This document shows positions 30,458 to 61,024 of a stretch of DNA of 64,000 bases, one piece after another (position 1 is the stretch's first letter; each line of letters starts with the position of its first letter). The translations under genes and the position numbers were made by a program. Source of the stretch: a plasmid; the sequence record CP071152.1; one strand, given 5' to 3'. Under the pieces are notes generated by a model. That model saw only the letters and a program-made list of their open reading frames with translations. It was not told the origin of the DNA and ran no database searches.

Positions 30458-30515
30458 TGTTGAAAGTTTTCTGTGTGGGGCTATTGGGGTAGCCCCATTT
30501 TTTTTGAGGTGGCCC

Positions 30516-33416
30516 ATGAAGGAATTGGCATTTAAACTCGTAGCCAAATGTATTAGGTTATTTCCGAAATCGAAAAAGGTAACCCGTAGCGATCTGCTCA
30601 CGGAGGTGAAAACAGTCTCCGGTAAGACGGTCGTCCCGAACGGCGTATATTATTCCCCGATGCCAATCATTGGGATCCAGCTGTTATCCATCGACGATGT
30701 TCTCGCCCCGCACGCGAAGACCATTAACGACATCGTTAAACGCTCTGGGCTATCGGACGGACACCCGCAATTCAATCCAAACAAACTTATTCACGGGGTT
30801 ATTTGGCGTACCGCTGAATATGTTCATTTGCTGCCTGCCAGCGAAGACTACCACCACATCGAAGCAGGCGGACTACTGTCGCATAGCCTGGAAGTTGCGA
30901 AGACGGCGCTGGGAGCTGCCTACAACACCGACCTCCCTGCAAAGACGCATTCCGATCTTGAAACCATCCGACGCTCTCGCTATTTCTACGCCGTGTTCAT
31001 CGCCGCCCTCCTCCACGACATCGGCAAAGTCTTCATGGACGTTCGCGTATACAGCGTCGACAACGGCAACCTGATGTGGGAGCCGCGCCTGGAGTCTTTA
31101 ACGGCCTGGGCGCTCAAGCACGGGGTTAACAGCTATCGGGTAGAGTACCGGCCAGGCCGAGCCAAGAGCCACGAGCGGGCCGCAAACTACGTGTTAAGCG
31201 CCGTGCTGACCAACGAAGCCAAGGAATACCTGCTCGCCTGCAAGACCGACGACATGTTCACGGAAATCGACGAGGCAATCAGCCATTACGCCGAGCGAGA
31301 CAGCTACATCGCTCAAGCACTGCGACAGGGCGATAGCTACTCGACGTTGCAGGACATCAAGGGCCGCCACTCACGCGATACGGGCCGCCGCAACTACTCC
31401 CTCGCAACTCATTTCATCCATGCCTGCCAACGCTTAACGCCGAATTGGAAGATCAACCAGCGCAGCGGGATGGTGTGGACGATTGGCGGGGATGCGTATT
31501 TGGCCTTCCCGAATGCCCTCAACACGATCATGCAGGACATCGCGGTGCATGGCGTGAAGGCACCCAAGGATGTCCATGAGGTCTACAACCTGCTCGTTGA
31601 GCAGCACATCGTAGAGGCTACCGACAGCACGACCCGTTGCTCGTTTTGGATGCCTGGGGAGTACACCACTGAGCAGGCCTTCACAGCGCAAGAGAACATC
31701 GCGATCAAGCGCGTGGGTCAAGACTGGATTGCCGTTGTAAAGCTCAAGTCCGTCCATTACGCCTTCGGATCTGGCGTGATGCCGGAGTCCAGACCTGGAG
31801 TGCTGTTGTTGAGTCGAGAAGGCAACATGCTGCACTTCGAAAAGGGCAAGCTTTACCAGCCGACTGCACACACCGCTAAGGAGATGCAGGCGAGGGTCAA
31901 GCAGCGCGAAGAGAAAGCGAAGGAGGAAGAGGCCAAGCTGGAGCGGTTGAAAGTCGAGCGTGAAGAACAAGCGATCAAGGAGGCCAGGGAGAAGGCCGAA
32001 GCGCAGGTTGCGCTGGAGCGACAGCAACGGGCGGCAGCGGCAGCCAATGAGCAGGTCGAGACACCGGCAGAACAACCCCCCATCGCTACAGAACCACCAG
32101 GAGCCCAACCCGCTACTGCCGAATCAAGCGAAGAGGCTCAGGTGGAGGCCGAAGTGCCATGCGACCCGCGAGAGCCAACAGAAGACGACGCTATGGCCCA
32201 TGGTGATGCGCAGGAGAGCGTTCTGGCTGGCGCGAGTACCAATGCAGCCACTTTGGTAGCCGATGCAGCACAGGGCGTTACAGGGGGCGAAAATGAAAGT
32301 GCCACGGTGGTGAGTGACAGTGCCGTTGAAGTCGCCAGCGTTGAAACCACCGCTGACTCTGTCGAGACGCCAGCAATCGACCAGCAACGCCAGGACACCA
32401 GCAGCGGAGTGCAGGCGGTAACACCGGGAGGCAACGCTTTTAGCGGCGGGCCAAATCGTCTCAGGAACAAGCACGTGCCGCCGGTAGCAGCTCCAGCAGT
32501 GCAACCACAACCTGATACCACAAGCGAAAGCCGTCAGCAGCCCAACTCACCGCAATGGTCAATGTCAAAACGGCAGAGACGTTTAACGGAGGCACAGACC
32601 GCACCAGCACCACATCAGGCTCCCGAATCTGTACGTGATGAAGCTCAGTCGAACACAGGCGAAACGGAAAAAGCGACAGCATGGATCGAGTGGGTGGGCA
32701 ACCAGCGCGGTGAGGGGAAGGTACTCTACCACCAGGTAGAGGGCGCAACGTATCTTCGTCTTACGCCGTTGAGCCAGCAGTTGATGCAAAGCCCGGATGC
32801 CGTACTGCAAACGTTGAATCTGGCCGGGACGCTGGCACGGTCTCAAGACAAGGCAGGCTTGCCCGTCGTCGTCCAGCACGAGGTAGCCGAAGGGGTGTTT
32901 GAAGCGCACTGCAAGTTGAGTGCAAGCGGAGAAGCGATTCTCAATAAATCAACTGGGAAAGTGTGGGGTGGCGACGAGTTTAAGGGCGTGTTCTGGCGCT
33001 CAGAGCGAGACGCAGAACGTGCGAGAAAGACCGAAACCCCGCTTACCGAGATGGATGCCTCGACTCCTGACACCGCAACGGCCATGCCTACCCAGCAAGA
33101 GGGGGATCCGGCCCCTCAACAGTTGGATACCCATGACCACGAGCAGATAAACCTTGAGGCACTGGGTTCGGCATTAGACTCCTCGAACCATCGCTTATCT
33201 GAAATCCTTCGCGTTCATGACGTTCTCAAACACAGGAAAACCCATCGAGACAACAAAAAGGCCACTGTGATCCTTGACGACAACTCCACAGCATACGAAG
33301 CAGCGTTTTTTGAGGCCTGTGCCGATGGTGTCGTTTCCTGCCACATGAAGGAACTCAAAAGCTTCCAACGAAAAATCGAGGGCACCTTGTACTACGTTGT
33401 TCCGCCAGAGTTTTAA
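30516..33416 (+). CDS. traI: MOBH-type conjugative relaxase TraI with an HD phosphohydrolase domain (970 aa)
   Basis: HD-domain signature HHIEAGGLLSHSLEV ... LLHDIGK. Charged coiled-coil and low-complexity regions lie in the C-terminal half. Alternative TTG start at 30504. Confidence 0.7.
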   Translation: MKELAFKLVAKCIRLFPKSKKVTRSDLLTEVKTVSGKTVVPNGVYYSPMPIIGIQLLSIDDVLAPHAKTINDIVKRSGLSDGHPQFNPNKLIHGVIWRTAEYVHLLPASEDYHHIEAGGLLSHSLEVAKTALGAAYNTDLPAKTHSDLETIRRSRYFYAVFIAALLHDIGKVFMDVRVYSVDNGNLMWEPRLESLTAWALKHGVNSYRVEYRPGRAKSHERAANYVLSAVLTNEAKEYLLACKTDDMFTEIDEAISHYAERDSYIAQALRQGDSYSTLQDIKGRHSRDTGRRNYSLATHFIHACQRLTPNWKINQRSGMVWTIGGDAYLAFPNALNTIMQDIAVHGVKAPKDVHEVYNLLVEQHIVEATDSTTRCSFWMPGEYTTEQAFTAQENIAIKRVGQDWIAVVKLKSVHYAFGSGVMPESRPGVLLLSREGNMLHFEKGKLYQPTAHTAKEMQARVKQREEKAKEEEAKLERLKVEREEQAIKEAREKAEAQVALERQQRAAAAANEQVETPAEQPPIATEPPGAQPATAESSEEAQVEAEVPCDPREPTEDDAMAHGDAQESVLAGASTNAATLVADAAQGVTGGENESATVVSDSAVEVASVETTADSVETPAIDQQRQDTSSGVQAVTPGGNAFSGGPNRLRNKHVPPVAAPAVQPQPDTTSESRQQPNSPQWSMSKRQRRLTEAQTAPAPHQAPESVRDEAQSNTGETEKATAWIEWVGNQRGEGKVLYHQVEGATYLRLTPLSQQLMQSPDAVLQTLNLAGTLARSQDKAGLPVVVQHEVAEGVFEAHCKLSASGEAILNKSTGKVWGGDEFKGVFWRSERDAERARKTETPLTEMDASTPDTATAMPTQQEGDPAPQQLDTHDHEQINLEALGSALDSSNHRLSEILRVHDVLKHRKTHRDNKKATVILDDNSTAYEAAFFEACADGVVSCHMKELKSFQRKIEGTLYYVVPPEF

Positions 33417-33523
33417 TCAATTACCCACAGATTCCGGCATGAGTTGTCCAGCGTTTCTGTGGATAACATTCCACCACCTACCAACCAACTACAGGGCCCC
33501 TGACGGGGCCTTGTGCATTGTGG

Positions 33524-33690
33524 CGCGAGCCACGCGGCCAACGGACGCGCATCAGTGCTGGCGAGTCTCCGAGCCACGCGGCCAACGGACGCGCATCAGT
33601 GCTGGCGAGTCTCCGAGCCACGCGGCCAACGGACGCGCATCAGTGTTGGCGAGTCTCCGAGCCACGCGGCCAACGGACGCGCATCAGTCG
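33524..33690. repeat. 44-bp tandem direct repeat, about 3.7 copies
   Basis: The unit GAGCCACGCGGCCAACGGACGCGCATCAGTGCTGGCGAGTCTCC repeats at about 33524, 33568, 33612 (one mismatch) and 33656 (partial). Confidence 0.85.
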
Positions 33691-33779
33691 GCTAGCCCCC
33701 CGAGTCACATGGCAAAGAACACCAGTTGCAGGCTGCCCTAGCGTCCCTCGGGGACAACACAAAACCCATGCCGCTCATC

Positions 33780-34750
33780 GCCGACAGTTCTGGAGTTGCA
33801 GCCAGGCAGATCCCGGGCTCTTGGCCGAACCTGAGATGTCCTTGATGGAAAATGTGGGTCTTGAGCAACCTCGCCGAAGGGTGCGGAGGCCTGCGTTGAT
33901 TACCAGGTACGAATGACCAGCAGTGGATGTCCCTCGTGGAGATGCTGAACATATTCGTTGTGAAGCCCTCATCACCTCCAGTCCCCTCCTGTTCTCTCAT
34001 CCTGTGTCAGCCCCTCCCGTGGCCAGCATTGCCGATCGGACATCTGAATTTGGTGCGCTCCTTCGTGGACTGTGACATGCCGCATCTCTTGGGACGCGAC
34101 GCCTGTGGCCAGCGTTTTGTGGTTGGGGTACCAGGTTCCCCAGGGCAGATGTCCTTCATGCAGTGCGAGGTGTCAGTTTCAGCCGCGTCGCCCAGAGGAG
34201 CACCCGGGTGGCCAGCGTCGTCGACCTGGGATCATGGATCAGCCCAGCGGGTGGTTGTCCTTGGTGTACTGAGGGTCGGTTCACCTGGCCGGTGTTCCAG
34301 TGGCCAGCGATGCCGCGTTCCCGGAGCTCATGACCGGGCACTGTGTCCTTGTCCTTCGAGGAGTGTGTGCGGCACCTATCCCCCCATGACGCCGATCGGC
34401 ACGCCAGTGGCCAGCGTCGTCGACCGGGGATCAGATCGCCTCAATGCAGGTGGCGGTAGATGGAGGACAGGGAGGCTCCCGCGACTGCGTCGCACGCCTC
34501 CAGTCACGCCAGTCAGCGGTGTCTCACCCTGGTATCTCGGTACTCCTCGGTACGACGTTGTCCTTGGTGGAGCTGGTGGCGCTATGCCTGGCCGGAGCTG
34601 GAGTGGCCACGACGGATGTCGTTCCTGGAGCTGGCGTTCAGCCGGATTGTGTTGATGTCCTTGAGGGAGTGCAGCCTCCCCCACTCCGCCGGTGTGAAGC
34701 CGACCTCGCCGAGCCGTGAGACCAGGACAGCTGGAGAACGAGCGAGGGGA
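33780..34750. repeat. Array of about 10 degenerate ~100-bp GC-rich tandem units; no convincing coding frame
   Basis: GTGGCCAGCG anchors recur at 34021, 34098, 34204, 34292 and 34399. GWTGTCCYTSRTGG motifs recur at 33838, 33927, 34150, 34252, 34345, 34556 and 34657. Period is 77-107 bp. Confidence 0.7.
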
Positions 34751-35041
34751 TCCTGACTTCCACCGAGGACTTTGACGTTGGCAAAGGCGACCTGGTCCGG
34801 CTGAGGAGATGCAGCACGCTGGGTGTCGCAGTGGAGTAGGTCGAGCCCCCTTATCCGGTGAGCATCATTGGGGTCGGTATCTGTTACGCAGCCATTCCAA
34901 GAATCGACGGGGCGATAACGCGAGGATGGAGAAAGAGATGGTAGAAAACCAAAGAGATTATTAAATGCTTGAGACTATCCCATGGGGATTATATATTGCA
35001 TTTATCAAATGACCGCACATGACCGCCACTTGGAGATAGCC

Positions 35042-35338
35042 ATGACCACAATGCCCACAATGGAAAAAAAGGCTCTGCTTGATGCTCTTTTAACCACGAA
35101 TATGTCCCCACTCACTACCTTTCGCTTCGTGGAGTTGTTAAACGAGATGGAGGCTTGCCAGTCCGAGCAATCGGCGTGGAAACTTCGCTATGAGTTGCTG
35201 GGCATGTGCAGCGTGCTGTGCTCTGAGGAAGTGATCTCCGACGATGAGCTGACGATGCTAAACGATGCCATAAGCCTCTTCTGGAAACCCCAGGCCCGCG
35301 CATTTACTCTAGCCCGACTGAGCGCCCTTGAAGCCTAA
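35042..35338 (+). CDS. Hypothetical small protein (98 aa)
   Basis: A GGAGA RBS lies 8 nt before ATG 35042. It is the first gene of a three-gene plus-strand cluster. Confidence 0.4.
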   Translation: MTTMPTMEKKALLDALLTTNMSPLTTFRFVELLNEMEACQSEQSAWKLRYELLGMCSVLCSEEVISDDELTMLNDAISLFWKPQARAFTLARLSALEA

Positions 35339-35793: not shown

Positions 35794-36281
35794 ATGGCTA
35801 TGAGTGCAAGGTTGGAGTTTGAGATTATCGAAAACGAAGGCAGGTTTGTGTTTCCTGCGGCAGCTGAGCAACCCTACCGATCGCTGCTCGATTCATTGGT
35901 GAGTGAGTCCACCACGGACAACGAGTTCGTCTGGTCTCTCCAAGCACTGCACCGGGAAGAGCCGCAAAACCTTGGCGTGATCGCCTCTCTGGCCGCGCAC
36001 TACGCTTCCGACGAGCCGGAGACTGCCCTGGAGTACGCCGAGAAGGGTCTGGCCCTCGCCGCTGCCCTCAACCCACCGACTTCACAGGCACCATGGACTG
36101 GAGGGAGGAATCCAACCACACCTACTTCGCGCTGCTGCACAGCGCCATAGTGGCCAACATGTTCATGGGGGACAACGACGAGGCATGGCGGCTGATCAAT
36201 CACTCGTTCACCCTCAACCCGCGCGATCACCTAAGCGTGCGCTTGTTTCGCGACCAGTTGCCCGCGTATGTCGCTCATTGA
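35794..36281 (+). pseudogene. TPR-like helical protein split by a frameshift near 36090
   Basis: ORFs 35722..36150 and 36093..36281 are adjacent in different frames. Their N- and C-terminal parts read like one about 160-aa protein. Confidence 0.4.
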
Positions 36282-36425: not shown

Positions 36426-37676
36426 TCATCCGTTCGGCTCGCAATGCTCACACCACCAACCTCGAACCCCCTTCCCCTTGTCACCACCGCAGTGCGGACA
36501 ATCGTTACTGCGGTCACGCGGGGGATCGGGGTCTTCTGCCCAATCGGTCCAGTGCCTACTGGCATAGCGAGCCTGCCCATACTGATAACGGCTGGTGGCA
36601 ACCGACGCGGGCTTGGGACTACGCGACTGCACGCAGAGCTCGCGGTAGCAGAAACCCTGTTCATCGAGGCCGCTGTTGTTGGGGGGAAGCCGACAGTAGC
36701 GGCAGTATCCCAAGGACATTGATCCCTGTGGTTGGGGCGTGACAGTGGGTGCGGCGTCCGGCGGCGGCGCTCTATCCATGATAGATTGTTCGCGCTCTTC
36801 ACGCAGCAGGGCCTCTTCCTTCATGCGCTGGAGTTCTACTGGATCCCGCGCCCGCCGTTCACGTTCCAGTCGCTCTTGCTTCTGCTTCTTTCGCCAAGCC
36901 CAAATCCGATCTTGTTTAGCGCGTTCTTCCCGCTGCCGCGCCTCCAACTCCTGTTGCCACTGTGCCTGACGCTCAGCTTGACGCTCTGCCTCCTGCTGCT
37001 CACGGGCCAGCTTCTCGGCCTGCCACTGAGCCAATTTGTGCTGATCGTGGGGATGATATATCCAGGAAAGGCAACTGCTTTGCTGCGACAGGAGGGTGAA
37101 CACCCAGGAGATGGTATCCATGCCTTCCGGGCGCTCATCGGAGTTGAGGTGCCACGCGAACTCGGCGTAATCCACGGCCAGCACACCACAGCCGGGGTGC
37201 TGGGCGACGAACTGATCTAGCCAGTGTGGGGTCAGGGGATCCTCCACTGCCGGGAAGTGCAGGGCAAGATGATGTTTTGGACTATTCACCACCTGGAAGA
37301 GACCGGCTGCGGTACCTTGGCTGGTGGCTTGAGGAACATGGCGGACAATGATACCCGAGCGTCGTTCTGAAACCTGCCTGCGCTCGTTGCCAAACGGGAG
37401 GGTGCGGGATGGCGTGCTGATGGAGGTCAGGGTATCGAGCCGGGAGAGCAGCATCAGCCGGACGCTGGTCTCGAAGGCCAGCTTACAATCCTTGCCGCTA
37501 TCATCGTGATGAGCAAAATAGTGAGTTCTCTTCTCCCCCTTCCTCGCAACCAGAAGGGCATTGCAGCTCGGGCAGCGACATCCACAACGGAGTCCGCGAT
37601 CGACTTCATCTACCGAGACAATGGCCCCTGTGCTTACCTGGATGGCGAAGGGGATTTTTACACCTGAATCGAACAT
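36426..37676 (-). CDS. CoiA-like zinc-finger protein with a long charged coiled coil and a Cys-rich C-terminus (416 aa)
   Basis: The N-terminus RGLRCGCRCPSCNALLVARKGEKRTHYFAHH matches the C-x-C ... HFAH pattern of competence-protein CoiA-like nucleases. The middle ER/EQ-rich stretch is a coiled coil. The C-terminus carries CxxC ... CPHCGG ... CEHC. Confidence 0.45.
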   Translation of the reverse strand: MFDSGVKIPFAIQVSTGAIVSVDEVDRGLRCGCRCPSCNALLVARKGEKRTHYFAHHDDSGKDCKLAFETSVRLMLLSRLDTLTSISTPSRTLPFGNERRQVSERRSGIIVRHVPQATSQGTAAGLFQVVNSPKHHLALHFPAVEDPLTPHWLDQFVAQHPGCGVLAVDYAEFAWHLNSDERPEGMDTISWVFTLLSQQSSCLSWIYHPHDQHKLAQWQAEKLAREQQEAERQAERQAQWQQELEARQREERAKQDRIWAWRKKQKQERLERERRARDPVELQRMKEEALLREEREQSIMDRAPPPDAAPTVTPQPQGSMSLGYCRYCRLPPNNSGLDEQGFCYRELCVQSRSPKPASVATSRYQYGQARYASRHWTDWAEDPDPPRDRSNDCPHCGGDKGKGVRGWWCEHCEPNG

Positions 37677-37699
37677 CTAGTCCTCGAAGGAGATCCGCA

Positions 37700-38866: not shown

Positions 38867-39781
38867 TCAAATAAGCGGTAGAGACACCTCACCTACCTCG
38901 ACAAGCGATCCGTTCTCCCACGGTATGACGGCCACCTGCCGGTCTTTGACTATCTGGATGTAGCCGCCTTGAATTTTGTCGATGTCACGGGCTGAGAAAC
39001 CGACCAGCGATATATAGGGGGAGCCGCCTCTCAGGAACTTCTTTACCTTTGCATATTCGTCCTTTCCCGTGGCGATGAAATAGATGTGCTCGCCTTCGGT
39101 CACCATGTCAGGGGAGTCAGGGTTTTGCGTGTATTTGCACACGAGGTCGATGTCACCCACATCAGGAGCAGTGGTGATGAGGCTGCCGTAGAGCCACACA
39201 TCCTGAACCCAGACGTATGGCTCGCAGGCATTCCACTCCTCCACCCGCTCAAGGAACTCTTCGAGCTTTTGCACTGCCTTGGCCCGAGGCAATCGCTTGA
39301 TGAGCTTGTGGCGACTCAGCTCAGCGCCTTTGGCTGTTACCTGATACCAAGCAAAGCCATTGTGATCGGTTATTCCCATCACTGTGAGATAACCCTCATC
39401 AAGCATTTTCTGGATGAGGTCGGGCGCGAGGGCAACCGCATTGGGATTCAGTTCGGTCAGGGAATACCCCATACCGCATCGCTGCTTCTCCTTGGTCAAC
39501 ACTATCTCGCCAATGGAGCGAACCTCCGTGACATAGTTTATGTCGTCGGTAGGGTACATCTGAGCGTAGTGGCGCAACCGCTTCACCAGATCGCGACCTG
39601 TCTTGAGGTCGAGCCCGAAAATTTTGCTCTTGGGGTCAATCGTCAGTCCCATGATCTCACCTGCTGTGGGATGAAAAGTCATAAAGTTATTCCCCCCAAC
39701 TAGGGATACATCGTAGAGGCTTCCAAGTTGTAATTTCCATTGAATGCCCCTCTTTCCGGGGCTTTTCTTGACCTTAATCAT
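38867..39781 (-). CDS. Fusion protein: unknown N-terminal domain + winged-helix + minimal nucleotidyltransferase (Pol-beta superfamily)
   Basis: The wHTH-like segment reads LIQKMLDEGYLTVMGITDHNGFAWYQVTAKGAEL. The NTase motif is YGSLITTAPDVGDIDLV (hG[GS]-x9-DhD). Confidence 0.5.
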   Translation of the reverse strand: MIKVKKSPGKRGIQWKLQLGSLYDVSLVGGNNFMTFHPTAGEIMGLTIDPKSKIFGLDLKTGRDLVKRLRHYAQMYPTDDINYVTEVRSIGEIVLTKEKQRCGMGYSLTELNPNAVALAPDLIQKMLDEGYLTVMGITDHNGFAWYQVTAKGAELSRHKLIKRLPRAKAVQKLEEFLERVEEWNACEPYVWVQDVWLYGSLITTAPDVGDIDLVCKYTQNPDSPDMVTEGEHIYFIATGKDEYAKVKKFLRGGSPYISLVGFSARDIDKIQGGYIQIVKDRQVAVIPWENGSLVEVGEVSLPLI

Positions 39782-50377: not shown

Positions 50378-50501
50378 ACGGAGTGATTTTGCTCAAGCAA
50401 AGGGGCCAGCGGCGTTTTTCAAGATAGTTGTCGCGCAAAGCTGTTTTAAGCAGCCTCTTTTTGCTCCGGCTCGGGTTTCTCGGGCCGCTCCGGATTTAGC
50501 A

Positions 50502-51714
50502 TCACGGCACCGATAGGTGTCCAGTCTCGCGTCTTGCCACTCCACCTCGCTGGGTGTTGTGCTCGGGCGGCCTGGTACACAGCATCCCGTTTCGCCAGCA
50601 GGGCTTTATCGTCACCCGATGCCGCTCGTTGGGTGTGACGAAGCGGATACGGCTATGCCGGTGCTCTTCGTTATACCAGGCCATAAAGTCGCGCACCCAC
50701 TCCCTGGCCGCTTCCAGACTGGCAAAGCCGTCTGATGGCCACTGCGGACAGTACTTCAGCGTCCTGAACAATGACTCCGAGTACGGATTATCGTTGCTGA
50801 CCCGAGGCCGTCCCCCGCGAGGGCGTGACACCCAGGTCATGCATCTTGGTCAGCAGCGTGACTGACTTCATTGGCGCGCCGTTGTCCGAGTGCAAGACCA
50901 GCGGCTGCTTCCAGCACTGCTCGCGGATGATGCTCCGTTGCAGCAACGCCGCCGCCCGTTCACCGCACTCTTGCTCATGCACTTCCCAGCCCACCCCTTT
51001 GCGGCTGTAGATGTCCTCTATCAGATAGAGGTAGTAATACTGGCCGCGCACGAGTGACGGCAAGTAGGTGATATCCCAGGACCACACTTGATTGGGCCCA
51101 GTCGCGGTATGGCTGGTTGGTACCGGCACATGACGCGGTGGCTGGCTCCGGCCACGCCTGTGCTGCTGGTCAGCCGCCCGCAAGATGCGATAGAAGCTCG
51201 ACTCACTGGCCAAGTAGCGCCCCTGGTCGGCCAGCCGTGGCACAATTTGACTCGGCGGCAACGAGGCGAACTCCTGGCTATTGCAGACGTCCAGCACGGC
51301 CTGCCGCTCCTCTGGGCTCAATGCATGAGCAGGTATGGAACGAACCGCATCCGGTCGCCTATCGGCACTCAGCTCAGGGCCGGCCAACCAGCGCTGGAGC
51401 GTGCGCAGACTCAGCCCCAACACCTCGGCCGCAGGATGCTTGCGGGCGCCAGCTTCAAGCGCTTCGCGCCACCATGCAACGTATTGCTGCCGCTCTGGCA
51501 ACGAGGTCAGTTGTCCTCGTCGACGTTGCTCCAGTAGGCATCGAGCTTTTTTTGCAATATCAGCAGAGCTGCCGCCTCGGCCAGGGCCTTGTCTTTGCGC
51601 CGCAGCTCTTGCTCCAGTTGCCGGATACGCTTCTTGTCCGCTTTGGCCTGTGCCTTCTCCGCCTGTTGTAAGGTACGAGCGGATTGCTGGCCCAGAATAC
51701 AGGCTTGGCGCCAT
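50502..51714 (-). pseudogene. IS3-family OrfB (DDE integrase core) with a +1 frameshift in a C5/G5 run at 50822..50826
   Basis: ORFs 50788..51714 (DITYLP ... LHSDNGAPMKS) and 50502..50840 (NPYSESLFRTLK) belong to one rve protein. Removing one G gives the contiguous GVTPSRGRPRVSNDNPYSE. Confidence 0.7.
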
Positions 51715-52007
51715 TGCTGGACTTGCTCGGGATAGAGACCCTTACGGCGGCAGTACTCACTGAGTTCAATCTCGGAAAGCGCAGCGGTTTCCAGCACGAC
51801 GGCGAACTTGGCCTCGGCGGGCCATTCATCGGTCAGTTTGTTGTCCCCGGGCACAGGAGACCCTCCGTCTTTGGCGTGTTTGCGCCAATTATACAGAGTG
51901 ACCTCGCTGATGTTTTCCTGCCGAGCCAACTCGGCCACCGACATATTGATGGGCGGCAGCAGCTTCTTGAGCAAAGCAGCCTTGCGCTCACTTGAATAAC
52001 GAGCCAT
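51507..52007 (-). CDS. IS3-family OrfA (HTH + leucine zipper) ending at an A-AAA-AAG slippery site
   Basis: MARYSSERKAALLKK ... ISEVTLYNWRKH; the C-terminus ...LILQKKLDAYW is encoded over CAAAAAAAGCTC. Confidence 0.75.
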   Translation of the reverse strand: MARYSSERKAALLKKLLPPINMSVAELARQENISEVTLYNWRKHAKDGGSPVPGDNKLTDEWPAEAKFAVVLETAALSEIELSEYCRRKGLYPEQVQQWRQACILGQQSARTLQQAEKAQAKADKKRIRQLEQELRRKDKALAEAAALLILQKKLDAYWSNVDEDN

Positions 52008-52384
52008 TCGACACTCTTTATCCGCCCCCGGTCTTCACATTTAGATTATTCAGATTAGGCGACAACTATTCTGACACCGGGGGCCAGTGATAACTAGATC
52101 TATATATGCGATACGGGCCGAGAAAAGCGCCGACAATGCCGTCGGCGCCTGAAAGTTATGATGTATTAAAATGCATTTTTACATATACAGATAAAGCGTA
52201 GGAAACTCTTTGGTAGCAAGTCTTCTGGCTGACATATCTCCTAACTATGCTCAATTAGGGTATAAGTTTCATCCTTGCAAATAAAGTGTCATCCCAACGG
52301 GATGAAAGCATTGAATTTGCTGGGCTGTAGCCGTTCTTACTGCTCAAATCACTACCCAGCTCAGGGTTCCACTGGCCAGTTCGA

Positions 52385-52570
52385 GCCACCCCGGTGTACT
52401 TGGCGCTTGGCCACCCCGGTTTACCTGTTGAGAGACATCTCAAATGCCGCGGTCAAAGTCCCCGAGGGAGATCCAGACGCCATGCCGGGAGTTTCAGCAC
52501 CGTCGGTTGACCTGGCCAGCACCGGTTTTGGGGATGAGTTCCGGGGTTGAGCAGCTGGTTGATTTCCACC
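52385..52570. repeat. Dispersed copy A of the GC-rich ~180-bp repeat family (same family as the 33.8-34.75 kb array)
   Basis: About 80% identical to 53640..53810 (GAGACATCTCA..TGCCGCGGTCA...GGGAGTTTCAGCAC/GCGTC.GTTGACCTGGCCAG...GAGYTCCGGGGTTGAGC). Confidence 0.7.
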
Positions 52571-52762
52571 AAGGACATCGGTGCTCGAGAGCGGACATAA
52601 GTACCCAGGTCAGCCTGCTGGCCACATCCCGGTACCAACCTACTCACGGAATTTGGCCTCTGTCGCAAATTCATCAAGAGGGCCCCTCTACTCATTGCGT
52701 GGCAGTGGGCAACGCGGGTACACATGAGTCGCCCACCACTGCGACCTACCAAGGACTGCGCT

Positions 52763-53521
52763 ATGACGATGTTTGTCTCCTACCCTTTCCGAGTCCCCGC
52801 CACCAATGCACCGCTGTACTGGCAGTCAGCCTATGAGCCGACCCATCGCTTCACCTATCTGCAATTTCATCCCGAACCGAACGAAGATGGAATTGAGATA
52901 GATGCCTCTTACGCTATGGAAGAGGATTTCTCGGTATCGGTCTTCAACGAACGCTATCAGGGCACCTCACTGTGCTTCCCGATAATCCCGAATGCCTCCC
53001 TGCCCAGCATCAAGGCGTTGGCCCACGACGCCAAGCTGGAGGCCATGCTACAGCGCATCAGCGATGCTTACCTTTCGGAGTTCCATGAAGGTCAGTGGAG
53101 GGGAAGTTTCCCCGGTCTGCCGGAGGGATTTGAGAAAGAGGTGATCGACCATCTGGCCGAGGTGCTATCGGAAGATGCGCTGAAAATAGTCCCAGCCAGC
53201 CAGTACGTCCGAGGTGGTAACCTGGAACTGTTTATTTTATGTGATCTGCTGTCCTTTGAGGACTATGCAGAAAAGCTGGTTCATCTGGCTGAGCATGAAG
53301 GGGTGCTCCTTGTGGGGGATGTGGTGGATGAAGTTGCCAAGTGGTGCGCCGAAGAGGTCGAATATGACATTGAGACGTACCTAGAACCAGACGAGACGCT
53401 GCACCTGTTGATCTTCCTCCTGAAACGGCATGACAAGGCGAAATACGGGTACCTGCTCGATCTCTTCAAAGCCCACTACCCCGAAGTAGAAGTGCCGTTG
53501 TTCGCTAAGACCTACTCATAG
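52763..53521 (+). CDS. Hypothetical protein (252 aa) flanked by the two dispersed repeat copies
   Basis: An AAGGA RBS lies 7 nt before ATG 52763. Coding-like composition with no motif recognised. Confidence 0.45.
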   Translation: MTMFVSYPFRVPATNAPLYWQSAYEPTHRFTYLQFHPEPNEDGIEIDASYAMEEDFSVSVFNERYQGTSLCFPIIPNASLPSIKALAHDAKLEAMLQRISDAYLSEFHEGQWRGSFPGLPEGFEKEVIDHLAEVLSEDALKIVPASQYVRGGNLELFILCDLLSFEDYAEKLVHLAEHEGVLLVGDVVDEVAKWCAEEVEYDIETYLEPDETLHLLIFLLKRHDKAKYGYLLDLFKAHYPEVEVPLFAKTYS

Positions 53522-53559: not shown

Positions 53560-53830
53560 ACACGCCGGGCTGATCTGGTGATGGTTGTCCTCGGTGGAAT
53601 GCCACCTCCCGACGGCGGGCACGGGTCCGGCTGAGGAGGTTGGCCACCGCCGGTGTACCTGGTGAGGAGACATCTCAGTGCCGCGGTCATTGTCCTTCGT
53701 GCAACTCAAGAAGCCCTGCAGGGAGTTTCAGCAGCGTCAGTTGACCTGGCCAGTGCCCGTTTTTTGGATGAGCTCCGGGGTTGAGCGGCGGGTGGATGTC
53801 CCTCATTGGCCCTGAAAGTCCCAGATGTCA
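53560..53830. repeat. Dispersed copy B of the GC-rich repeat family
   Basis: See copy A. It also contains GGTTGTCCTCGGTGG and GGATGTCCCTCATTGG motif variants. Confidence 0.7.
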
Positions 53831-53947
53831 TGGGCAGCTGCGTGCGAGCTGCACCTGGCTGGGCCCGGCGACGCGGGATCCCGCCCCTCCCGGTCCTTCA
53901 AGGACAAATTGGTGGTCGGCCCGGCGCTCCAGTATCCGCCCACCTGG

Positions 53948-53986
53948 GTGCCGGTGCCGGTGCCGGTGCCGGTGCCGGTGCCGGTG
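53948..53986. repeat. Hexanucleotide microsatellite (GTGCCG) x6.5
   Basis: Perfect tandem GTGCCGGTGCCG... run. It lies in a region without a convincing ORF. Confidence 0.85.
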
Positions 53987-54350
53987 GACGATAGTCGACC
54001 TGTTGGTGGTTCGACATGCCGGTTGTCCGGCACCTCTTTGAAAATATGTGGGTCGCCGCGCAGAAATGATGATGAGTCTTGATTTACGTTGTCGCCGAAG
54101 CCGCGTCGCCGCGCCATATGAGGTCGAGTGACGCCGGTTGCCTCCGCCAGAATTTGATCCAGCTGTAAGGATTCGAAGATGAAAATCAAAGTGATCTGCG
54201 AGTACGCTTGGGAAGTAGTGAGATCGAAAAAGAGAGCACTCTTCACCGCTGAGATGTTTCGTAAACAGGGGTACGGACATTCCACCTTCCAGATCATGGA
54301 TGACGATGGTATGGTATGGGTAATCACAGGTATTACCTTGGAGTACCACC

Positions 54351-54638
54351 ATGCCCACACAATCCAAACCGGTCTCGATCAAACTCGACGCCGATACCCA
54401 GGAACGCATCAAACGCCTGGCAACCTCCCGCGAACGCTCAGCCCATTGGCTCATGCGCGAAGCCATCAGCCAGTATGTCGAGCGCGAAGAACTGCGCGAG
54501 ACCTTCCACCGCGACACTCTGGAGGCCTGGCAGGAGTTCCAGGAGACCGGCCAGTATGCCACCGCTCAAGATGTGGATCAGTGGCTAGCCTCTTGGGGCA
54601 CTGATGCCGAAGGAGCGCCTCCTGCATGCCACCAGTGA
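54351..54638 (+). CDS. Type II antitoxin, ParD/CopG-like RHH
   Basis: MPTQSKPVSIKLDADTQERIKRLATSRERSAHWLMREAISQYVERE is an RHH antitoxin N-terminus. It overlaps the toxin start by 13 bp. Confidence 0.7.
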   Translation: MPTQSKPVSIKLDADTQERIKRLATSRERSAHWLMREAISQYVEREELRETFHRDTLEAWQEFQETGQYATAQDVDQWLASWGTDAEGAPPACHQ

Positions 54639-56317: not shown

Positions 56318-56968
56318 TTGAGTGACAGAATGCAATTCACTAAAATTAATAAATCACGCCATGCGGCCTACGTTTTGCACGTACATTTGGTGTTTATCAC
56401 CAAGTATCGAAAGCCGATATTGGGGGATCTACATCACGCTTCCTTCGGTCAGTGTGCGGCAGAGGTTTGCAGAGATTTTGGTGCGGAACTGAAAGAGTGT
56501 GACGGAGAGGCTGATCATGTTCACATGCTGATAGAGTACGCGCCAACGGTGCAGCTATCGGTACTGGTGAACTCGTTAAAGGCGGTCACATCAAGGCGAC
56601 TGCGTAATGAATTTCTGGACTTGAGAGGTGCTTACAGCAAACCCGTACTCTGGTCACGCTCTTACTTTGCGGGCTCTTGCGGCGGAGCACCGTTGGAGGT
56701 GATCAAGCAATACATTCAAAACCAGCGGGCTGACGCCCGGCGAAATTCCCCTTCCACCTACGTCGGAGGGAGTCCCCTTTCGCATTTAAGATGGCCCGTC
56801 GCTATCATGTGGGCAGTGGAGTTCCACAAGATGATAGCCAGTCGGTGGCTTGGCTCAACAAGGCCGCCGATCTCGGCCACACCGAGGCCCAATACGCAAT
56901 GGCCGTGCGCTATTTCAACGGCACCGGCGTTCCTCAGGACTACCTCCATGCAAGGTACTGGTGCATGA
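56318..56968 (+). CDS. tnpA: IS200/IS605-family TnpA (Y1 HUH transposase) with an aberrant 3' extension beyond about 56719
   Basis: HUH motifs HVHLVF and HVHMLIEY, plus SRSYFAGSCGG. Residues 1-134 are identical to the copy at 63685. The other copy ends QYIQRG-stop, whereas this one reads on (QYIQNQRADA...). Confidence 0.7.
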   Translation: MSDRMQFTKINKSRHAAYVLHVHLVFITKYRKPILGDLHHASFGQCAAEVCRDFGAELKECDGEADHVHMLIEYAPTVQLSVLVNSLKAVTSRRLRNEFLDLRGAYSKPVLWSRSYFAGSCGGAPLEVIKQYIQNQRADARRNSPSTYVGGSPLSHLRWPVAIMWAVEFHKMIASRWLGSTRPPISATPRPNTQWPCAISTAPAFLRTTSMQGTGA

Positions 56969-57327
56969 AGGCTGCCGAAAACGGGGTCGATGAAGCCCGT
57001 CTGTTAATGGCGAGATTCTACCTAGAGGCGCTGGGCGTCGAACGCGATGAGGCCGAAGGCGTGGCGTGGGTGGCGGAGGCAGCCGTGCAAAAGGGCAAGA
57101 CCGCCCGCCAAGCCCAAGCGATGCTGGGCTCTCTCTTCCAACGTGGGGTCGGGGTCGAGCGTGATCTCAAGATGGCCTACGTCTGGTATTCCGTGGCGGC
57201 GGCCAATGGCGACGGCGGAGCGCCGATCAGTCGCGACCTCGTCGCCAAGGGGCTGAGTGCCGATGAACTGGATGAGGCGCAAGCACTGGCTGGCCAGTAT
57301 TTCGAGCGTTTTAATACCAAGTCCTAG
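56791..57327 (+). CDS. Sel1-repeat (SLR/TPR-like) protein, apparently 5'-truncated by the IS200/IS605 insertion
   Basis: Repeated A.W..KAA..G...AQY.LA..Y..G.GV..D motifs. The ORF begins inside a repeat. Confidence 0.55.
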   Translation: MARRYHVGSGVPQDDSQSVAWLNKAADLGHTEAQYAMAVRYFNGTGVPQDYLHARYWCMKAAENGVDEARLLMARFYLEALGVERDEAEGVAWVAEAAVQKGKTARQAQAMLGSLFQRGVGVERDLKMAYVWYSVAAANGDGGAPISRDLVAKGLSADELDEAQALAGQYFERFNTKS

Positions 57328-58329
57328 TCCTGCTCTTGACCCGGTTCATACCCCAAAGCCCTGTGGCTGGCCTCCATGAGGACAGTAGGGCTTAACCGGC
57401 GAACGTCGCACGCCCTAGCGACCAGCCGCACATTTGGGCCGGTACAAAGACGCACCAGGTAGTCCCCACCCCCCTGAAAGTCTTTACCCCCAAATGATCT
57501 TCCCTCAACAAAGCCGGGGATCCCCATTCTTCCAAAAGCGTTAAACCCAACTCGGGGCCGCCACGCGCATCCGGTTGCGCTCCCGCTCGTCGAACACCTG
57601 GCCACCGAGGTCGTTCCCGGAGCCTGGTGCCAAAGCCGCGGTGAATGTCCCTAGTGGAGAAGATGAGCTCCAAGACGGGTCTGCACGCCGCCGTCGTACT
57701 GGCCACTGCCGGTGTACCAGGAGCCGGTCAGGTAGAGACGCACCTTAAATGTCCACCGAGGAGATCACCCCGCCAATGCCCAGGACTGGTGTGCGTGCTG
57801 CCCAGGGAGGGTCGTCCGGCGGAGGAGACACCCGTTCTGATGGCCTCCCCGTCCATCAGGGACAGCAGGGATGTCGGCCAGGTGCTCCAGAGCAACCGCC
57901 ACCTGGGTGCCGCCCAGTGCCGCCCCCAACATCGAGGTGATCGCAAGTGGAGTACCAGCGTAAGCGGGAGGTGAGCTGCGCCAGCTGCGCTGCCCTCCTC
58001 TTCGGCGAGCGGGAGTGCCTTTGGCCTGTAAAAGACAGGGGAAGAGAGCTCTAGTGCAGTGAGGTATGCAAGCGGCTGATGTCCTTAGGCGGACAAGGAG
58101 GCTTGCGCGACTTGGGTCGCACCCTCCGAGGAGCTGGCCACACCGGCGGTGCTCCAGGTAAAACCGTGGAGGTTGGAGTCCTCCGTGCAGATTGAGGGCC
58201 CTCAGCGATGTCGTTTGCCAGGTGTTGACCAGGGTAGCGTCGGCACCTGCGTTCTGGAGTGGGCCCTGTTATTGACCACAAGAAACAGCAGTAATTACTG
58301 GAATACCAGCTACTTACACAACACCTCTG

Positions 58330-59199
58330 CTACTGCTTTCCGCGCTTTCGATTCTTGATGATCACGCAGCGGTCTTTACCTTTGCCACCTGGGGTCAATG
58401 CGTAATCCAGGTAACCAATCTTCTCCAATTCGGCCAACCCGTTGACGATTGAGCGATTCACCTCTGCTTCGGTGCCGGTCAAGCACAGACGCGATCTGAT
58501 CCGGCTAAACGCCAACGGTGCCGGATTCTTTGGCAGGGCATGAATGAACATATAAAGGCATTGTGCGGTCTCCCGCCTCTGGAGTGCTTCCTGAGTGTCT
58601 AGGGACAACAGGATCTCGTGGTCAATCCGGTACAACTCCCACAGTCGCTCGTCAGGCACGAGCTTGATTTTATTGGCGTCAATGTCATAGGTGGCGCTCT
58701 GGAGCAAGTGCGTCTTATGGGTTTTGGTCCCGGCGGAAAATGTTATCACCTGACTCATGATGCGGGTAAGGCTGGTATCCACTCGTGTCTTTAATACCGT
58801 GCTCTGCGCCGAACTCGGATACCCGCACAACCGCGAAAACTCCGAAAAGCTCATTTCCAGACCGTTGGGCTGAAAACCATACTGTTCAAACGCCCGCACG
58901 ATCCCCGTCCAGATCTTGAAATCTGTGTCGATGTTGAGCCGTGACCCGAAGATTTTCACATCAACATACCCTTCGGTACGGGCAAACGTAATCTCGCGCA
59001 TGGCGGAGGAGAGATCTGCAACACGCCCCTTCGCTCTCGATGTACGACCCACCGGCGTGAAGATCGGAGTCCGTAAAATCAGGTTTGGGTGAACTGTGGA
59101 TTGCCTGTGATGACGCAGCGTGGACAATGAAGATCCAGCCTTGATTGGATGCTCTAACAGCTTTGATTTTTCAGGATTTTTTGAATCATCGTTAGTCAT
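58330..59199 (-). CDS. repA: Plasmid replication initiator (RepA-like, iteron-binding type)
   Basis: 289 aa. Five 22-bp iterons, a DnaA box and an AT-rich GATC cluster lie immediately upstream. The winged-helix-like blocks are basic. Confidence 0.5.
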   Translation of the reverse strand: MTNDDSKNPEKSKLLEHPIKAGSSLSTLRHHRQSTVHPNLILRTPIFTPVGRTSRAKGRVADLSSAMREITFARTEGYVDVKIFGSRLNIDTDFKIWTGIVRAFEQYGFQPNGLEMSFSEFSRLCGYPSSAQSTVLKTRVDTSLTRIMSQVITFSAGTKTHKTHLLQSATYDIDANKIKLVPDERLWELYRIDHEILLSLDTQEALQRRETAQCLYMFIHALPKNPAPLAFSRIRSRLCLTGTEAEVNRSIVNGLAELEKIGYLDYALTPGGKGKDRCVIIKNRKRGKQ

Positions 59200-59225: not shown

Positions 59226-59480
59226 ACTCGCTGATTTAGGCCACATGAATCGCTCATATAGACCACACGAAATGCTCACATAGACTACATGAACCTGCTA
59301 GTACAGACCACAAGAATCGCTAATTTAGACCACATGGAACGAGTTATGCACAGGGCGCAAAGCCCCGTGGCACATGAGATGAAACGTGATTTTGGTATGG
59401 CGGGGATCTTTTGGATCTTAGATATGGATCTATAGGGGATCGTTATGGTTAAGGGCGACCAGATCTGTGGATAACTGGTA
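59226..59480. other. Candidate oriV: five direct 22/23-bp iterons, a DnaA box and an AT-rich GATC-rich segment
   Basis: Iterons (T)AGACCACAYGAA.. at 59238, 59260, 59282, 59305 and 59327. The DnaA box TGTGGATAA (TTATCCACA on the rep strand) is at 59466..59474. Four GATC sites lie in 59405..59465. Confidence 0.6.
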
Positions 59481-60227
59481 CCCCGAAGTATAACAGCGAG
59501 GCTTTCCAAGTTGTGGCTGACACCCAGATTGTGCTCAACACCCGGCTGGGAGCTGGCCACACCGGCGGTGCGCCAGAGCGAGGTCAAGGTCGAGCTGGTG
59601 GCTCGGGTACACGAAGGACACTGAGACCCATGCAGATGTCGGGGCAGCGATGTCCCCGGATAGGGTTCGTCATCTGGCTGAGGCGCAGGACTTGGCACCG
59701 TAGCCGATAGACATCATCCCCGGCTAGGCGAGGGATCTTCTGCTAGGCTGGAATGGTTAACCGCCGAAATGGCAGCCAAGAATGGAAGTTATCAGCCAAG
59801 CGTTGGTACTCGTTTTTGATCCGCCGAACAGGCAGCCAAACACTTCATGCGACCTGATGGCGGGGCAAACTCAGCAATGAGCGCCCCGCACCTTTTTACA
59901 TTCCCCTTCCCTTCCCTATCGTGGTCGGCCCCAACGCGCAGATGCACGACGGCTGATACTTGTCCTTGGTGGAGTGGCACCACCCGGCAGCCTGGTACAC
60001 CCGGTTGAGGAGATGACCCCTGTTCTCGATGGTGCTGCTCGATGTAGCGGGCGACGGCGGGCCTGTGACTGAGCGCAGAGCTGCCCTGTGGCTGGTGGCC
60101 TGTGTCAGACCCGGTGCTGGGCATCCTTTCCGGTGAGCATCTTGGGCTCAATTCGAGGCAACGCGAAGGAATGGAAAGGTAGAGAGAAAGCCCCGATATG
60201 TTAACCGGACGGTTCGGGGCTTTGATT

Positions 60228-60632: not shown

Positions 60633-61024
60633 ATCGCCTCCGAAGGCTGATGTTTTGGCGGGTTTGATCTACCCGTCCATTCGACAATCCGTATTAAGCC
60701 GTCAGCTCCACAACATCATCGGAGCGAGTAAGGCCATCGTTGGTGCCGGACGCCGGTGAATATGTCCAGCCGTACACCTCCGTGTCGCAGTATTCCTGTG
60801 CGGCTACAGCCTCACACGCGGCGTTATTGTTGCCCTCGATTGCGCCACTACCTCGTTGGTCTCGGCGTTATAGACATAAAGAATCATGCTCGACCTCTCA
60901 CCGCTTGTAGTTCATTTGTAATTCATTGACGCCCTGCAACACCGATTACAGCAGGGATTGAGACTGACTCCTTGAAGGACAATGCCACCAAGTAGATGGT
61001 GGACATCGAGCTGCCATCAGCGCG

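Follow-up and report, generated by a model that had tools for sequence, protein, structure and literature searches.

What function, if any, is served by the kilobase of degenerate, GC-rich tandem repeats which follows the relaxase gene of a large Aeromonas plasmid? The repeats lie in a 64,000-nucleotide stretch of plasmid record CP071152.1 (hereafter the window), which derives from a MOBH megaplasmid of ~240 kb and is 99% identical to pMCR5_045096 and pK520-KPC. A first-pass annotation, made from the letters alone, had noticed the repeats and had offered as explanations a centromere-like or protein-binding array, a cluster of small RNAs or a decayed satellite. The array is real, noncoding and lineage-specific, and it forms part of a family of motifs found in intergenic DNA across the whole plasmid. 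Our tentative interpretation, to which we would give a little less than an even chance, is that it may be the densest cluster of a plasmid-wide, cis-acting motif recognised by a protein; we infer both that the conserved blocks are bound and that such binding has an effect.

Structure of the array

The location of a ~1 kb array after the relaxase gene, and a period of about 100 bp, were confirmed by 5-mer autocorrelation and by nhmmer. Autocorrelation across positions 33780-34750 gave peaks at lags of ~102, ~195 and ~304 (z = 9-12 against shuffles), an nhmmer unit profile recovered nine consecutive units, and hand-cut units aligned with MAFFT produced a clear three-block consensus, so the periodicity persists under formal analysis. 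The nine units and ten core motifs are contained within 900 bp and all share one orientation. The arrangement is as follows, scores in bits being those of the position weight matrix (PWM) described below:

33744-33758, minus strand: inverted core motif at the left array edge, 12.4 bits
33790-34700, plus strand: the degenerate array, nine head-to-tail units, all on this strand, delimited by autocorrelation, nhmmer and alignment
33797-33885, plus strand: unit 1, degenerate block 1; core 33835-33849
33886-34018, plus strand: unit 2, the longest (133 bp); core 33926-33940
34019-34104, plus strand: unit 3, with GTGGCCAGCA; core 34055-34069
34105-34207, plus strand: unit 4, with GTGGCCAGCG; core 34148-34162
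34208-34299, plus strand: unit 5; core 34254-34268
34300-34406, plus strand: unit 6; core 34348-34362
34407-34509, plus strand: unit 7, decayed core GGCGGTAGATGGAGGA at about 34455-34470
34510-34602, plus strand: unit 8, degenerate block 1; core 34557-34571; Chi octamer 34572-34579
34603-34700, plus strand: unit 9, with GTGGCCACGA; two cores, 34615-34629 and 34654-34668

Block 1 of the unit is GTGGCCAGCG; it is followed after ~14 bp by block 2, a CGAYCNGGNAYC-like sequence containing CCNGG, and then, at a variable distance of ~20-25 bp, by block 3, the 15-bp core G(A/T)TGTCCYTSRTGGA, beyond which an unconserved tail of ~40 bp completes the unit. GTGGCCAGCG is present in the window as four exact copies and one with 1 mismatch, all of them within the array, and GWTGTCCYTSRTGG at up to 1 mismatch occurs 12 times against 0.5 expected, with 6 of the 12 in the array. 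The first-pass annotation had described about ten related copies, 77-107 bp long and ~60-80% identical, carrying a G(A/T)TGTCC-type motif. The motif was indeed found, in ten copies, though the units themselves number nine; their lengths are 86-133 bp, mostly not multiples of 3, and whole-unit pairwise identity is only 43-64% (median 56%), compared with 49 +/- 3% for shuffled units. The similarity between units resides almost entirely in the three short blocks, the spacing from block to block varies by up to ~15 bp and that from site to site is 39-129 bp, and a further stretch of 35 bp, 89% identical, is common to the heads of units 5 and 7. The GC content is 62-66% over the array against ~46-60% in the flanks. 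Standard repeat tools had been put forward as the means of defining the units, but Tandem Repeats Finder (TRF) and a blastn self-comparison miss the array and see only a 44-bp repeat next to it; such an array is therefore beyond these tools and requires a profile together with autocorrelation.

A core motif dispersed across the plasmid

Far from being the isolated satellite that it was first taken for, the array belongs to a dispersed family, of which it is the largest cluster. The 15-bp block 3 was converted into a PWM trained on 14 sites from the same plasmid, which carries about 17 bits, and sites were called at a threshold of >=12 bits. The window contains 32 core sites against 2.75 +/- 1.5 expected, and 18 of the 32 were outside the training set. 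Along 85 kb of the pMCR5_045096 backbone (115.4-200.1 kb) there are 47 where 4.2 would be expected, and 37 of these are intergenic, in 23.6% of the sequence, against 1.0 expected; ten of the 37 belong to the array. As whole units have drifted to near-random identity (56% vs 49%) while the core keeps its ~17 bits, the constraint appears to act on the blocks and is unlike uniform neutral decay, and as the core is recognisable at ~40 places, nearly all intergenic, that constraint would fall on a recognition sequence at the DNA level. Block 1 also stays recognisable, to a lesser degree than the core.

The core is asymmetric, with strongly negative PWM scores on the reverse strand, and its sites occur in both orientations and follow no consistent rule in their placement relative to where genes start or end (of 27 dispersed sites, only 9 face the start of a downstream gene), which fits a role at the level of DNA. 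It often has GTGGCCAGCG about 45 bp to either side. TGGCC was found at unit distance from 17% and 29% of core sites, against backgrounds of 13% and 14%; since this block stands beside only some of the dispersed sites, the core also exists alone. Both single cores and clusters of units were located in the window:

35908-35922, minus strand: stand-alone core, 17.5 bits
37681-37695, minus strand: stand-alone core, ending 5 bp before the ATG of a 416-aa gene at 36426-37676 (minus strand)
52452-52627, minus strand: two dispersed units upstream of a hypothetical gene at 52724-53521; nhmmer E = 3e-9 and 1e-6, 23.1 and 17.8 bits
53584-53818, plus strand: three cores and two units downstream of gene 52724-53521; nhmmer units at 53639-53818
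57597-57866, both strands: cluster of units downstream of repB, with cores at 57644 (plus), 57752 (minus) and 57852 (minus)
59540-59973, both strands: units beyond oriV, with cores at 59608 (minus) and 59959 (plus)
60969-60983, minus strand: stand-alone core, 16.7 bits
61817-61831, plus strand: stand-alone core, 15.7 bits

The unit at 57597-57665 was recovered by the nhmmer profile though absent from the training set, and more units can be picked out by eye at 57.6-58.2 kb and 59.5-60.1 kb, so clusters of units or cores lie on both sides of repB/oriV. Outside the window, a run of units of ~500 bp is found downstream of the parA operon, which is itself flanked by core sites, as is an hns-family gene. 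The GAGGA of the core at 37681-37695 is the Shine-Dalgarno sequence of gene 36426-37676, and two real genes have the 3' half of the core (GAGGA/GGAGGA), placed 5-7 nt short of the ATG, as their Shine-Dalgarno sequence. Positions 53631-53801 form a direct repeat of 52406-52576, ~75% (70-77%) identical over ~170 bp, each copy being made of two units; the gene between them (52724-53521; 265 aa, no family match) is thereby bracketed in a cassette-like arrangement. A separate observation concerns WP_148248208.1, a protein with an XRE-type helix-turn-helix domain encoded outside the window (L010, 17150-17240): its annotated GTG start runs through a 20-bit core, and an ATG 88 bp downstream, after GAGG, looks a more plausible start, which would place the core 71 bp upstream of the gene.

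Coding and RNA-level explanations

The possibility that the repeats are the remains of a protein-coding gene, decayed or mis-sequenced, with internal repeats (for example a protein built from 34-residue, 102-bp repeats) is raised by three features: a 242-aa open reading frame (ORF) at 33927-34655, the longest present, covers most of the array, the ~102-bp period is equivalent to 34 codons, and genes for TPR proteins are found near unit clusters, both in the window (56791-57327) and beside mobH in the A. media plasmid pAeme3. However, the 242-aa ORF belongs to no Pfam family, and among 5.8 billion proteins it found five matches, all of them pseudo-ORFs on copies of the same plasmid lineage. A six-frame tblastn search of the array against the whole reference plasmid gave no match outside the array, and independent assemblies at >99% identity contain no frame-restoring differences. 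When backbone genes were used to train a log-odds model of codon usage, real genes had one positive frame (+0.08 to +0.28 bits per codon), whereas the array scored below zero in each of its six frames (-0.14 to -0.32); unit lengths that are mostly not multiples of 3 point the same way. The ORFs of the array overlap on both strands and are rich in R, G, P and S. A decayed TPR or Ig-like repeat gene was rejected specifically, there being no translated similarity. A coding origin is essentially excluded, and we regard it as very improbable indeed; the noncoding character claimed at the outset has withstood both the six-frame analysis and the search for a long ORF with homologues.

A different explanation operates at the level of RNA, with the unit being, or deriving from, a translation-initiation or leader region, a small RNA or an RNA-target motif. 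The core can be read as (A/T)TG-TCC-YTS-RTG-GAN, that is Met-Ser-Leu-Val-Glu, with a Shine-Dalgarno-like 3' half (GGAG/GAGGA), and, as described above, the motif supplies the Shine-Dalgarno sequence of two real genes 5-7 nt before the start. Over the five putative codons the mean information is highest at second positions (1.26 bits), followed by first (0.86) and third (0.72), and the third codon, YTS, is Leu (TTG, CTC, CTA or CTG) or Phe (TTC) across copies. Nevertheless, there is no conservation downstream of the five "codons", the block spacing shifts the frame between units, the ORF of unit 5 reaches a stop after 5 codons, every frame has a negative codon log-odds score, and 18 of the 27 dispersed sites are not aimed at the start of a downstream gene. 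The first-pass annotation had also envisaged a cluster of small RNAs or one structured RNA per unit, and neither found support: a covariance search of Rfam, relaxed to E <= 10, returned nothing relevant, an alignment of 14 units gave an empty structure in RNAalifold on both strands, and folding of the 971-nt region showed no excess stability relative to shuffles (z = -0.67 on the plus strand, -0.10 on the minus). Scans within the array detected neither promoter-like sites nor convincing terminators, and ARAGORN found no tRNA or pseudo-tRNA array. Folding the region as single-stranded DNA likewise revealed no excess structure, on which ground a single-stranded promoter or attC-like element was rejected. 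An RNA-level role is, in our view, very unlikely, and both it and the coding explanation are excluded as far as sequence analysis reaches.

The gap downstream of mobH

The stretch which holds the array is unannotated for 1.58 kb in both reference records, from the stop codon of the relaxase gene to the next annotated gene (35042-35338, its start taken from the annotations of the two reference plasmids). The 1.6 kb around the array are 99.2-99.5% identical to pMCR5_045096, from A. hydrophila, and pK520-KPC, from A. allosaccharophila, both typed MOBH. The upstream gene, preceded by mobI, had originally been labelled traI; it does encode a relaxase, but one of the MobH family, and it is annotated mobH in both references. 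The features of the gap, and those of the replication origin with which they may be compared, are:

30504-33416, plus strand: MobH-family relaxase gene, taken from the ORF list
33458-33466, minus strand: perfect DnaA box TTATCCACA, 42 bp past the mobH stop codon
33494-33518, plus strand: GC hairpin GGGCCCC-TGAC-GGGGCC followed by TTGTGCATT, read from the sequence
33526-33688, plus strand: perfect 44-bp tandem repeat, 3.7 copies (TRF score 319, 99% matches), directly upstream of the degenerate array
34969-34997, plus strand: sigma-70-like promoter match, the sole one in the gap, just upstream of gene 35042-35338 in an AT-richer stretch
59228-59336, upstream of repB (58330-59199, minus strand): iterons of oriV
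About 59395-59445: GATC cluster of oriV
59466-59474, minus strand: perfect DnaA box of oriV

The hairpin at 33494-33518 is probably the mobH terminator; a consensus terminator scan left it uncalled because its T tract is weak. Copy number of the 44-bp repeat is 4, 3, 2 or 1 among relatives otherwise >99% identical, and the repeat has no second locus on the plasmid. It was considered as the RNA repeats of a type III toxin-antitoxin system, in which tandem repeats of ~36-44 nt precede a terminator and a gene for a ToxN/AbiE-like toxin, and rejected, since the noncoding array comes next and the ORFs there have no Pfam match.

This layout brings in another explanation, namely that the gap is a cis region for replication or transfer (an auxiliary origin, a primosome or DnaA-loading site, or an accessory site for the relaxase) in which the units would form the GC-rich part and the 44-bp repeats an iteron-like part. 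The only two perfect DnaA boxes of the 64 kb, both on the minus strand, are each followed by repeats and then by GC-rich units. The box after mobH is also kept at that position in two diverged A. media plasmid lineages (L004, ~10085; L005, ~10488), and the 44-bp repeat stays perfect and yet varies in copy number. Against this, the gap has no AT-rich unwinding element, GATC cluster or adjacent rep gene, and units also occur far from any DnaA box. The true iterons of RepB, five copies of a 22-bp TCGCTAATATAGACCACATGAA-type sequence at 59228-59336, bear no similarity to any unit block, and a RepB iteron array was accordingly rejected as an identity for the repeats. For MOBH plasmids, on the model of IncA/C and SXT, one would look for oriT on the upstream side of mobI rather than beyond the relaxase gene, which weighs against a transfer function. 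There is, we think, only a small chance that the array is a region of this kind.

Distribution and turnover

In the collections searched, the array is confined to one lineage of Aeromonas MOBH megaplasmids. Its carriers are two PLSDB plasmids, four metagenome contigs (>99%), one noisy 173-kb ENA contig (~93%) and short Logan contigs. A 24-base composite pattern matched 85 metagenome loci and 1 viral locus, of which four (L135, L148, L192 and L210) are real, all >99% identical to the window, and pattern scans of metagenomes and viruses yielded no relatives of intermediate divergence. The signature GTGGCCAGCG-N80-110-GTGGCCAGCG gave at least 120 loci among genome contigs (one genome per species); the matches listed were all chance occurrences in GC-rich genomes, none fitting the unit profile, and they were discarded. 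A literature search for comparable plasmid repeats brought up nothing relevant, and the papers on pMCR5_045096, in the parts available, have resistance genes as their topic.

In two Logan contigs (L013 and L014) the array lacks 199 bp, corresponding to units 5-6, with the junction in the 35-bp homology shared by the heads of units 5 and 7. Recombination between units thus changes the length of the array, and natural variants with 7 and 9 units exist.

More distant plasmids present a different picture. The A. media plasmids compared have MobH proteins ~58-60% identical to that of the window; in pE31A and pMC64A a cold-shock/excalibur gene follows mobH in place of the array. In pAeme3, with a MobH at ~60% identity, gaps beside mobH are noncoding, GC-rich and furnished with repeats of their own. 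Ten WTGTCCY motifs, all oriented alike, fall within them, a density ~11-fold that of the remaining 48 kb examined; no homology to the window could be detected in this plasmid at the level of units. It also has several unannotated multi-kilobase stretches at 74-80% GC (L221; 1-2, 7-8 and 35-39 kb), and at 24.9-25.4 kb it carries noncoding repeats of 302 bp. It may be that Aeromonas MOBH plasmids of this group commonly contain large noncoding blocks rich in GC. A further plasmid examined, pASP-135, whose RepB is distantly related, proved to be a compact phage-plasmid in which long GC-rich gaps are absent.

These observations bear most directly on the view of the array as a selfish or neutral satellite, in which a segment of ~100 bp underwent tandem duplication, spread by recombination into further intergenic gaps and has since been in decay. 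The blocks would then reflect gene conversion or a favoured substrate for duplication and recombination rather than any function for host or plasmid, and the array would persist as a 240-kb plasmid tolerates intergenic DNA. The change in unit number by homologous recombination fits such a history, as do the near-random identity of whole units, the restriction of the family to a narrow lineage (represented in PLSDB by two plasmids and in metagenomes by a handful of contigs), the ~170-bp direct copies flanking gene 52724-53521 and the absence of any depletion of polymorphism in the blocks when close relatives are compared. However, a 15-bp block which retains ~17 bits amid a randomised unit is unlike uniform neutral decay, and many cores stand alone without the rest of the unit, co-occurrence with TGGCC being modest. 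The GC content of the array exceeds that of its surroundings, the opposite of the usual outcome of relaxed selection, and a similar half-motif accompanies mobH in pAeme3, where MobH identity is only ~60%. A satellite is the main alternative, albeit one that we hold to be somewhat unlikely.

Comparison with known repeat systems

The array shares with CRISPR a noncoding, repeated structure of regular period. Its period is ~100 bp, however, and its units are 86-133 bp long and 43-64% identical, whereas CRISPR repeats are near-identical and 23-50 bp long; there is no invariant repeat and there are no unique spacers, TRF finds no such array, and no cas genes are annotated on the reference plasmid. 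The initial judgement that this is not a CRISPR array is therefore sound.

In behaviour the family most resembles REP/BIME arrays, which are known as protein-binding DNA (gyrase, IHF and Pol I). Both are GC-rich and intergenic, occur in either orientation and in tandem clusters with a unit of ~80-100 bp, and vary in copy number between strains; for the core family, 37 of 47 sites are extragenic, the sites are dispersed in both orientations and the array exists with 7 and 9 units. The resemblance does not extend to structure: REPs are imperfect palindromes of ~35 bp with stable hairpins, whereas the array blocks are short and asymmetric, and neither excess folding (z -0.67/-0.10) nor a consensus structure across 14 units was found. 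REPs are also chromosomal (enterobacterial) while the core family is plasmid-specific, and no RAYT-type transposase is evident.

The CUP repeats of IncN plasmids (pKM101) are noncoding sequences of ~100-150 bp in one backbone region near the transfer genes, recombinogenic and containing a regulator-binding site. The array family is similarly plasmid-specific, recombinogenic, noncoding and near transfer genes. CUP elements, however, lie upstream of genes in fixed orientation and include a promoter, whereas the array has no promoter-like site, nine copies follow head to tail with no genes between them, and 9 of 27 dispersed sites face a gene start.

In its proposed action the array would be closer to P1 incA, F sopC and the KorB operators of IncP-1, in which short protein-binding copies are clustered or spread over the backbone close to the genes for replication, partition and transfer. 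In these systems the sites are either strongly conserved, as in iterons and sopC, or palindromic (KorB OB), with short and regular spacing and a known binder, unlike the loose ~100-bp array, and no ParB or KorB homologue is annotated. The centromere-like array suggested at first is unlikely, because the repeat at the promoter and 3' flank of the parA operon is of a different, TGTATTACA type, although GC-rich units flank that operon too. Comparison by eye with consensus sequences also led us to reject a sigma-54 promoter, the NifA upstream activating sequence (TGT-N10-ACA), a resolvase half-site (TGTCY), a lux box and a sigma-32 promoter, each through a misfit of spacing or sequence; a Chi site and an ops-like element are present in one unit each and were judged coincidental. 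By the tests run, the array would appear to fall in none of the families compared, whether CRISPR, REP/BIME, CUP or auxiliary arrays.

A putative cluster of protein-binding sites

A protein-binding array and a decayed satellite both account for much of the above, and it is the enrichment of the core in intergenic DNA which favours the former. Two further points in its favour are the gathering of sites around maintenance functions and the run of like-oriented WTGTCCY motifs next to mobH in pAeme3. A sequence-specific DNA-binding protein, encoded by the plasmid or by its host, would recognise the 15-bp core. Its working sites would be the dispersed single copies and small clusters in the maintenance region, at repB/oriV, the par operon and the hns-like gene, and the ten-site array beside the relaxase gene may build a large nucleoprotein complex or serve as a high-capacity sink for the same factor. 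Such a mode would resemble that of auxiliary site arrays which titrate or organise plasmid control proteins.

This interpretation should be considered with caution, as several points weigh against it. No binder emerged, and the neighbouring small genes had no match in Pfam, PHROGs or NCBIfam. Block spacing (shifts of up to ~15 bp) and site spacing (39-129 bp) are loose for a cooperative complex, and the core is asymmetric where the sites of most dimeric regulators are symmetric. Some dispersed matches overlap Shine-Dalgarno regions and may sit there for that reason, and the PWM was derived from 14 sites of the same plasmid. Variants without two of the units occur, so the exact size of the array is not essential. 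Among relatives >99% identical, 2 of 13 variable positions fall in the blocks against 3.4 expected, which on these small numbers amounts to no detectable purifying selection.

A bolder form of the protein-binding interpretation would make the core a previously unrecognised, plasmid-wide system of cis-elements, in which an uncharacterised backbone protein acts at ~40 intergenic sites and the array is a centre for nucleation or titration, KorB-like in function though built of unrelated parts. The modules with putative sites would be those for replication, partition, hns and the relaxase. The putative binder may be the XRE-type helix-turn-helix protein, whose likely start has a 20-bit site 71 bp ahead of it; it is named as a candidate only. 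We consider a system of this scope unlikely.

Other features of the window

The Chi octamer GCTGGTGG is present 17 times in the window against 3.2 expected, with a strand split of 15:2. Over the whole of pMCR5_045096 (L007-L011) the split is 27:3, the three minus-strand copies being close to the integron and Tn3-type resistance genes, at 47-60 kb, and the bias holds whatever the orientation of the genes. This points to selection that depends on replication or DNA entry proceeding in one direction only.

In two of the metagenome variants (L135 and L148), position 39677 is followed by about 2 kb of other DNA and then by position 52264, and the segment 39677-52264 is therefore an insertion into the backbone. 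Its content comprises gamma-mobile-trio genes (gmtY, a VPA1269-family gene and gmtX), DUF2971, PIN and AAA-ATPase cargo and ISAs20. The latter, of the IS3 family, occupies 50406-52089, and the corresponding position in pMCR5_045096 is without it; pMCR5_045096 in turn has the IS21-like ISAs27 near 136-138.4 kb, an element that pK520-KPC lacks and that the window apparently lacks as well. At 53947-53986 a hexanucleotide, GGTGCC, is repeated perfectly 6.7 times as a microsatellite, which overlaps two minus-strand ORFs (53803-54360 and 53828-54562).

Implications

If the array is a satellite only, it still explains a 1.6-kb gap in annotation and provides a recombination substrate that alters array length between isolates. 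The practical consequence is in either case modest and lineage-specific. If the protein-binding interpretation is true, the array could be used as bait for the factor, or in trans as a titrator whose effects on stability and transfer could be followed. Were the core a real binding site, it would point to a global layer of control or organisation on large Aeromonas plasmids, a group which carries mcr-5, KPC and many other resistance genes and in which most backbone genes are unannotated.

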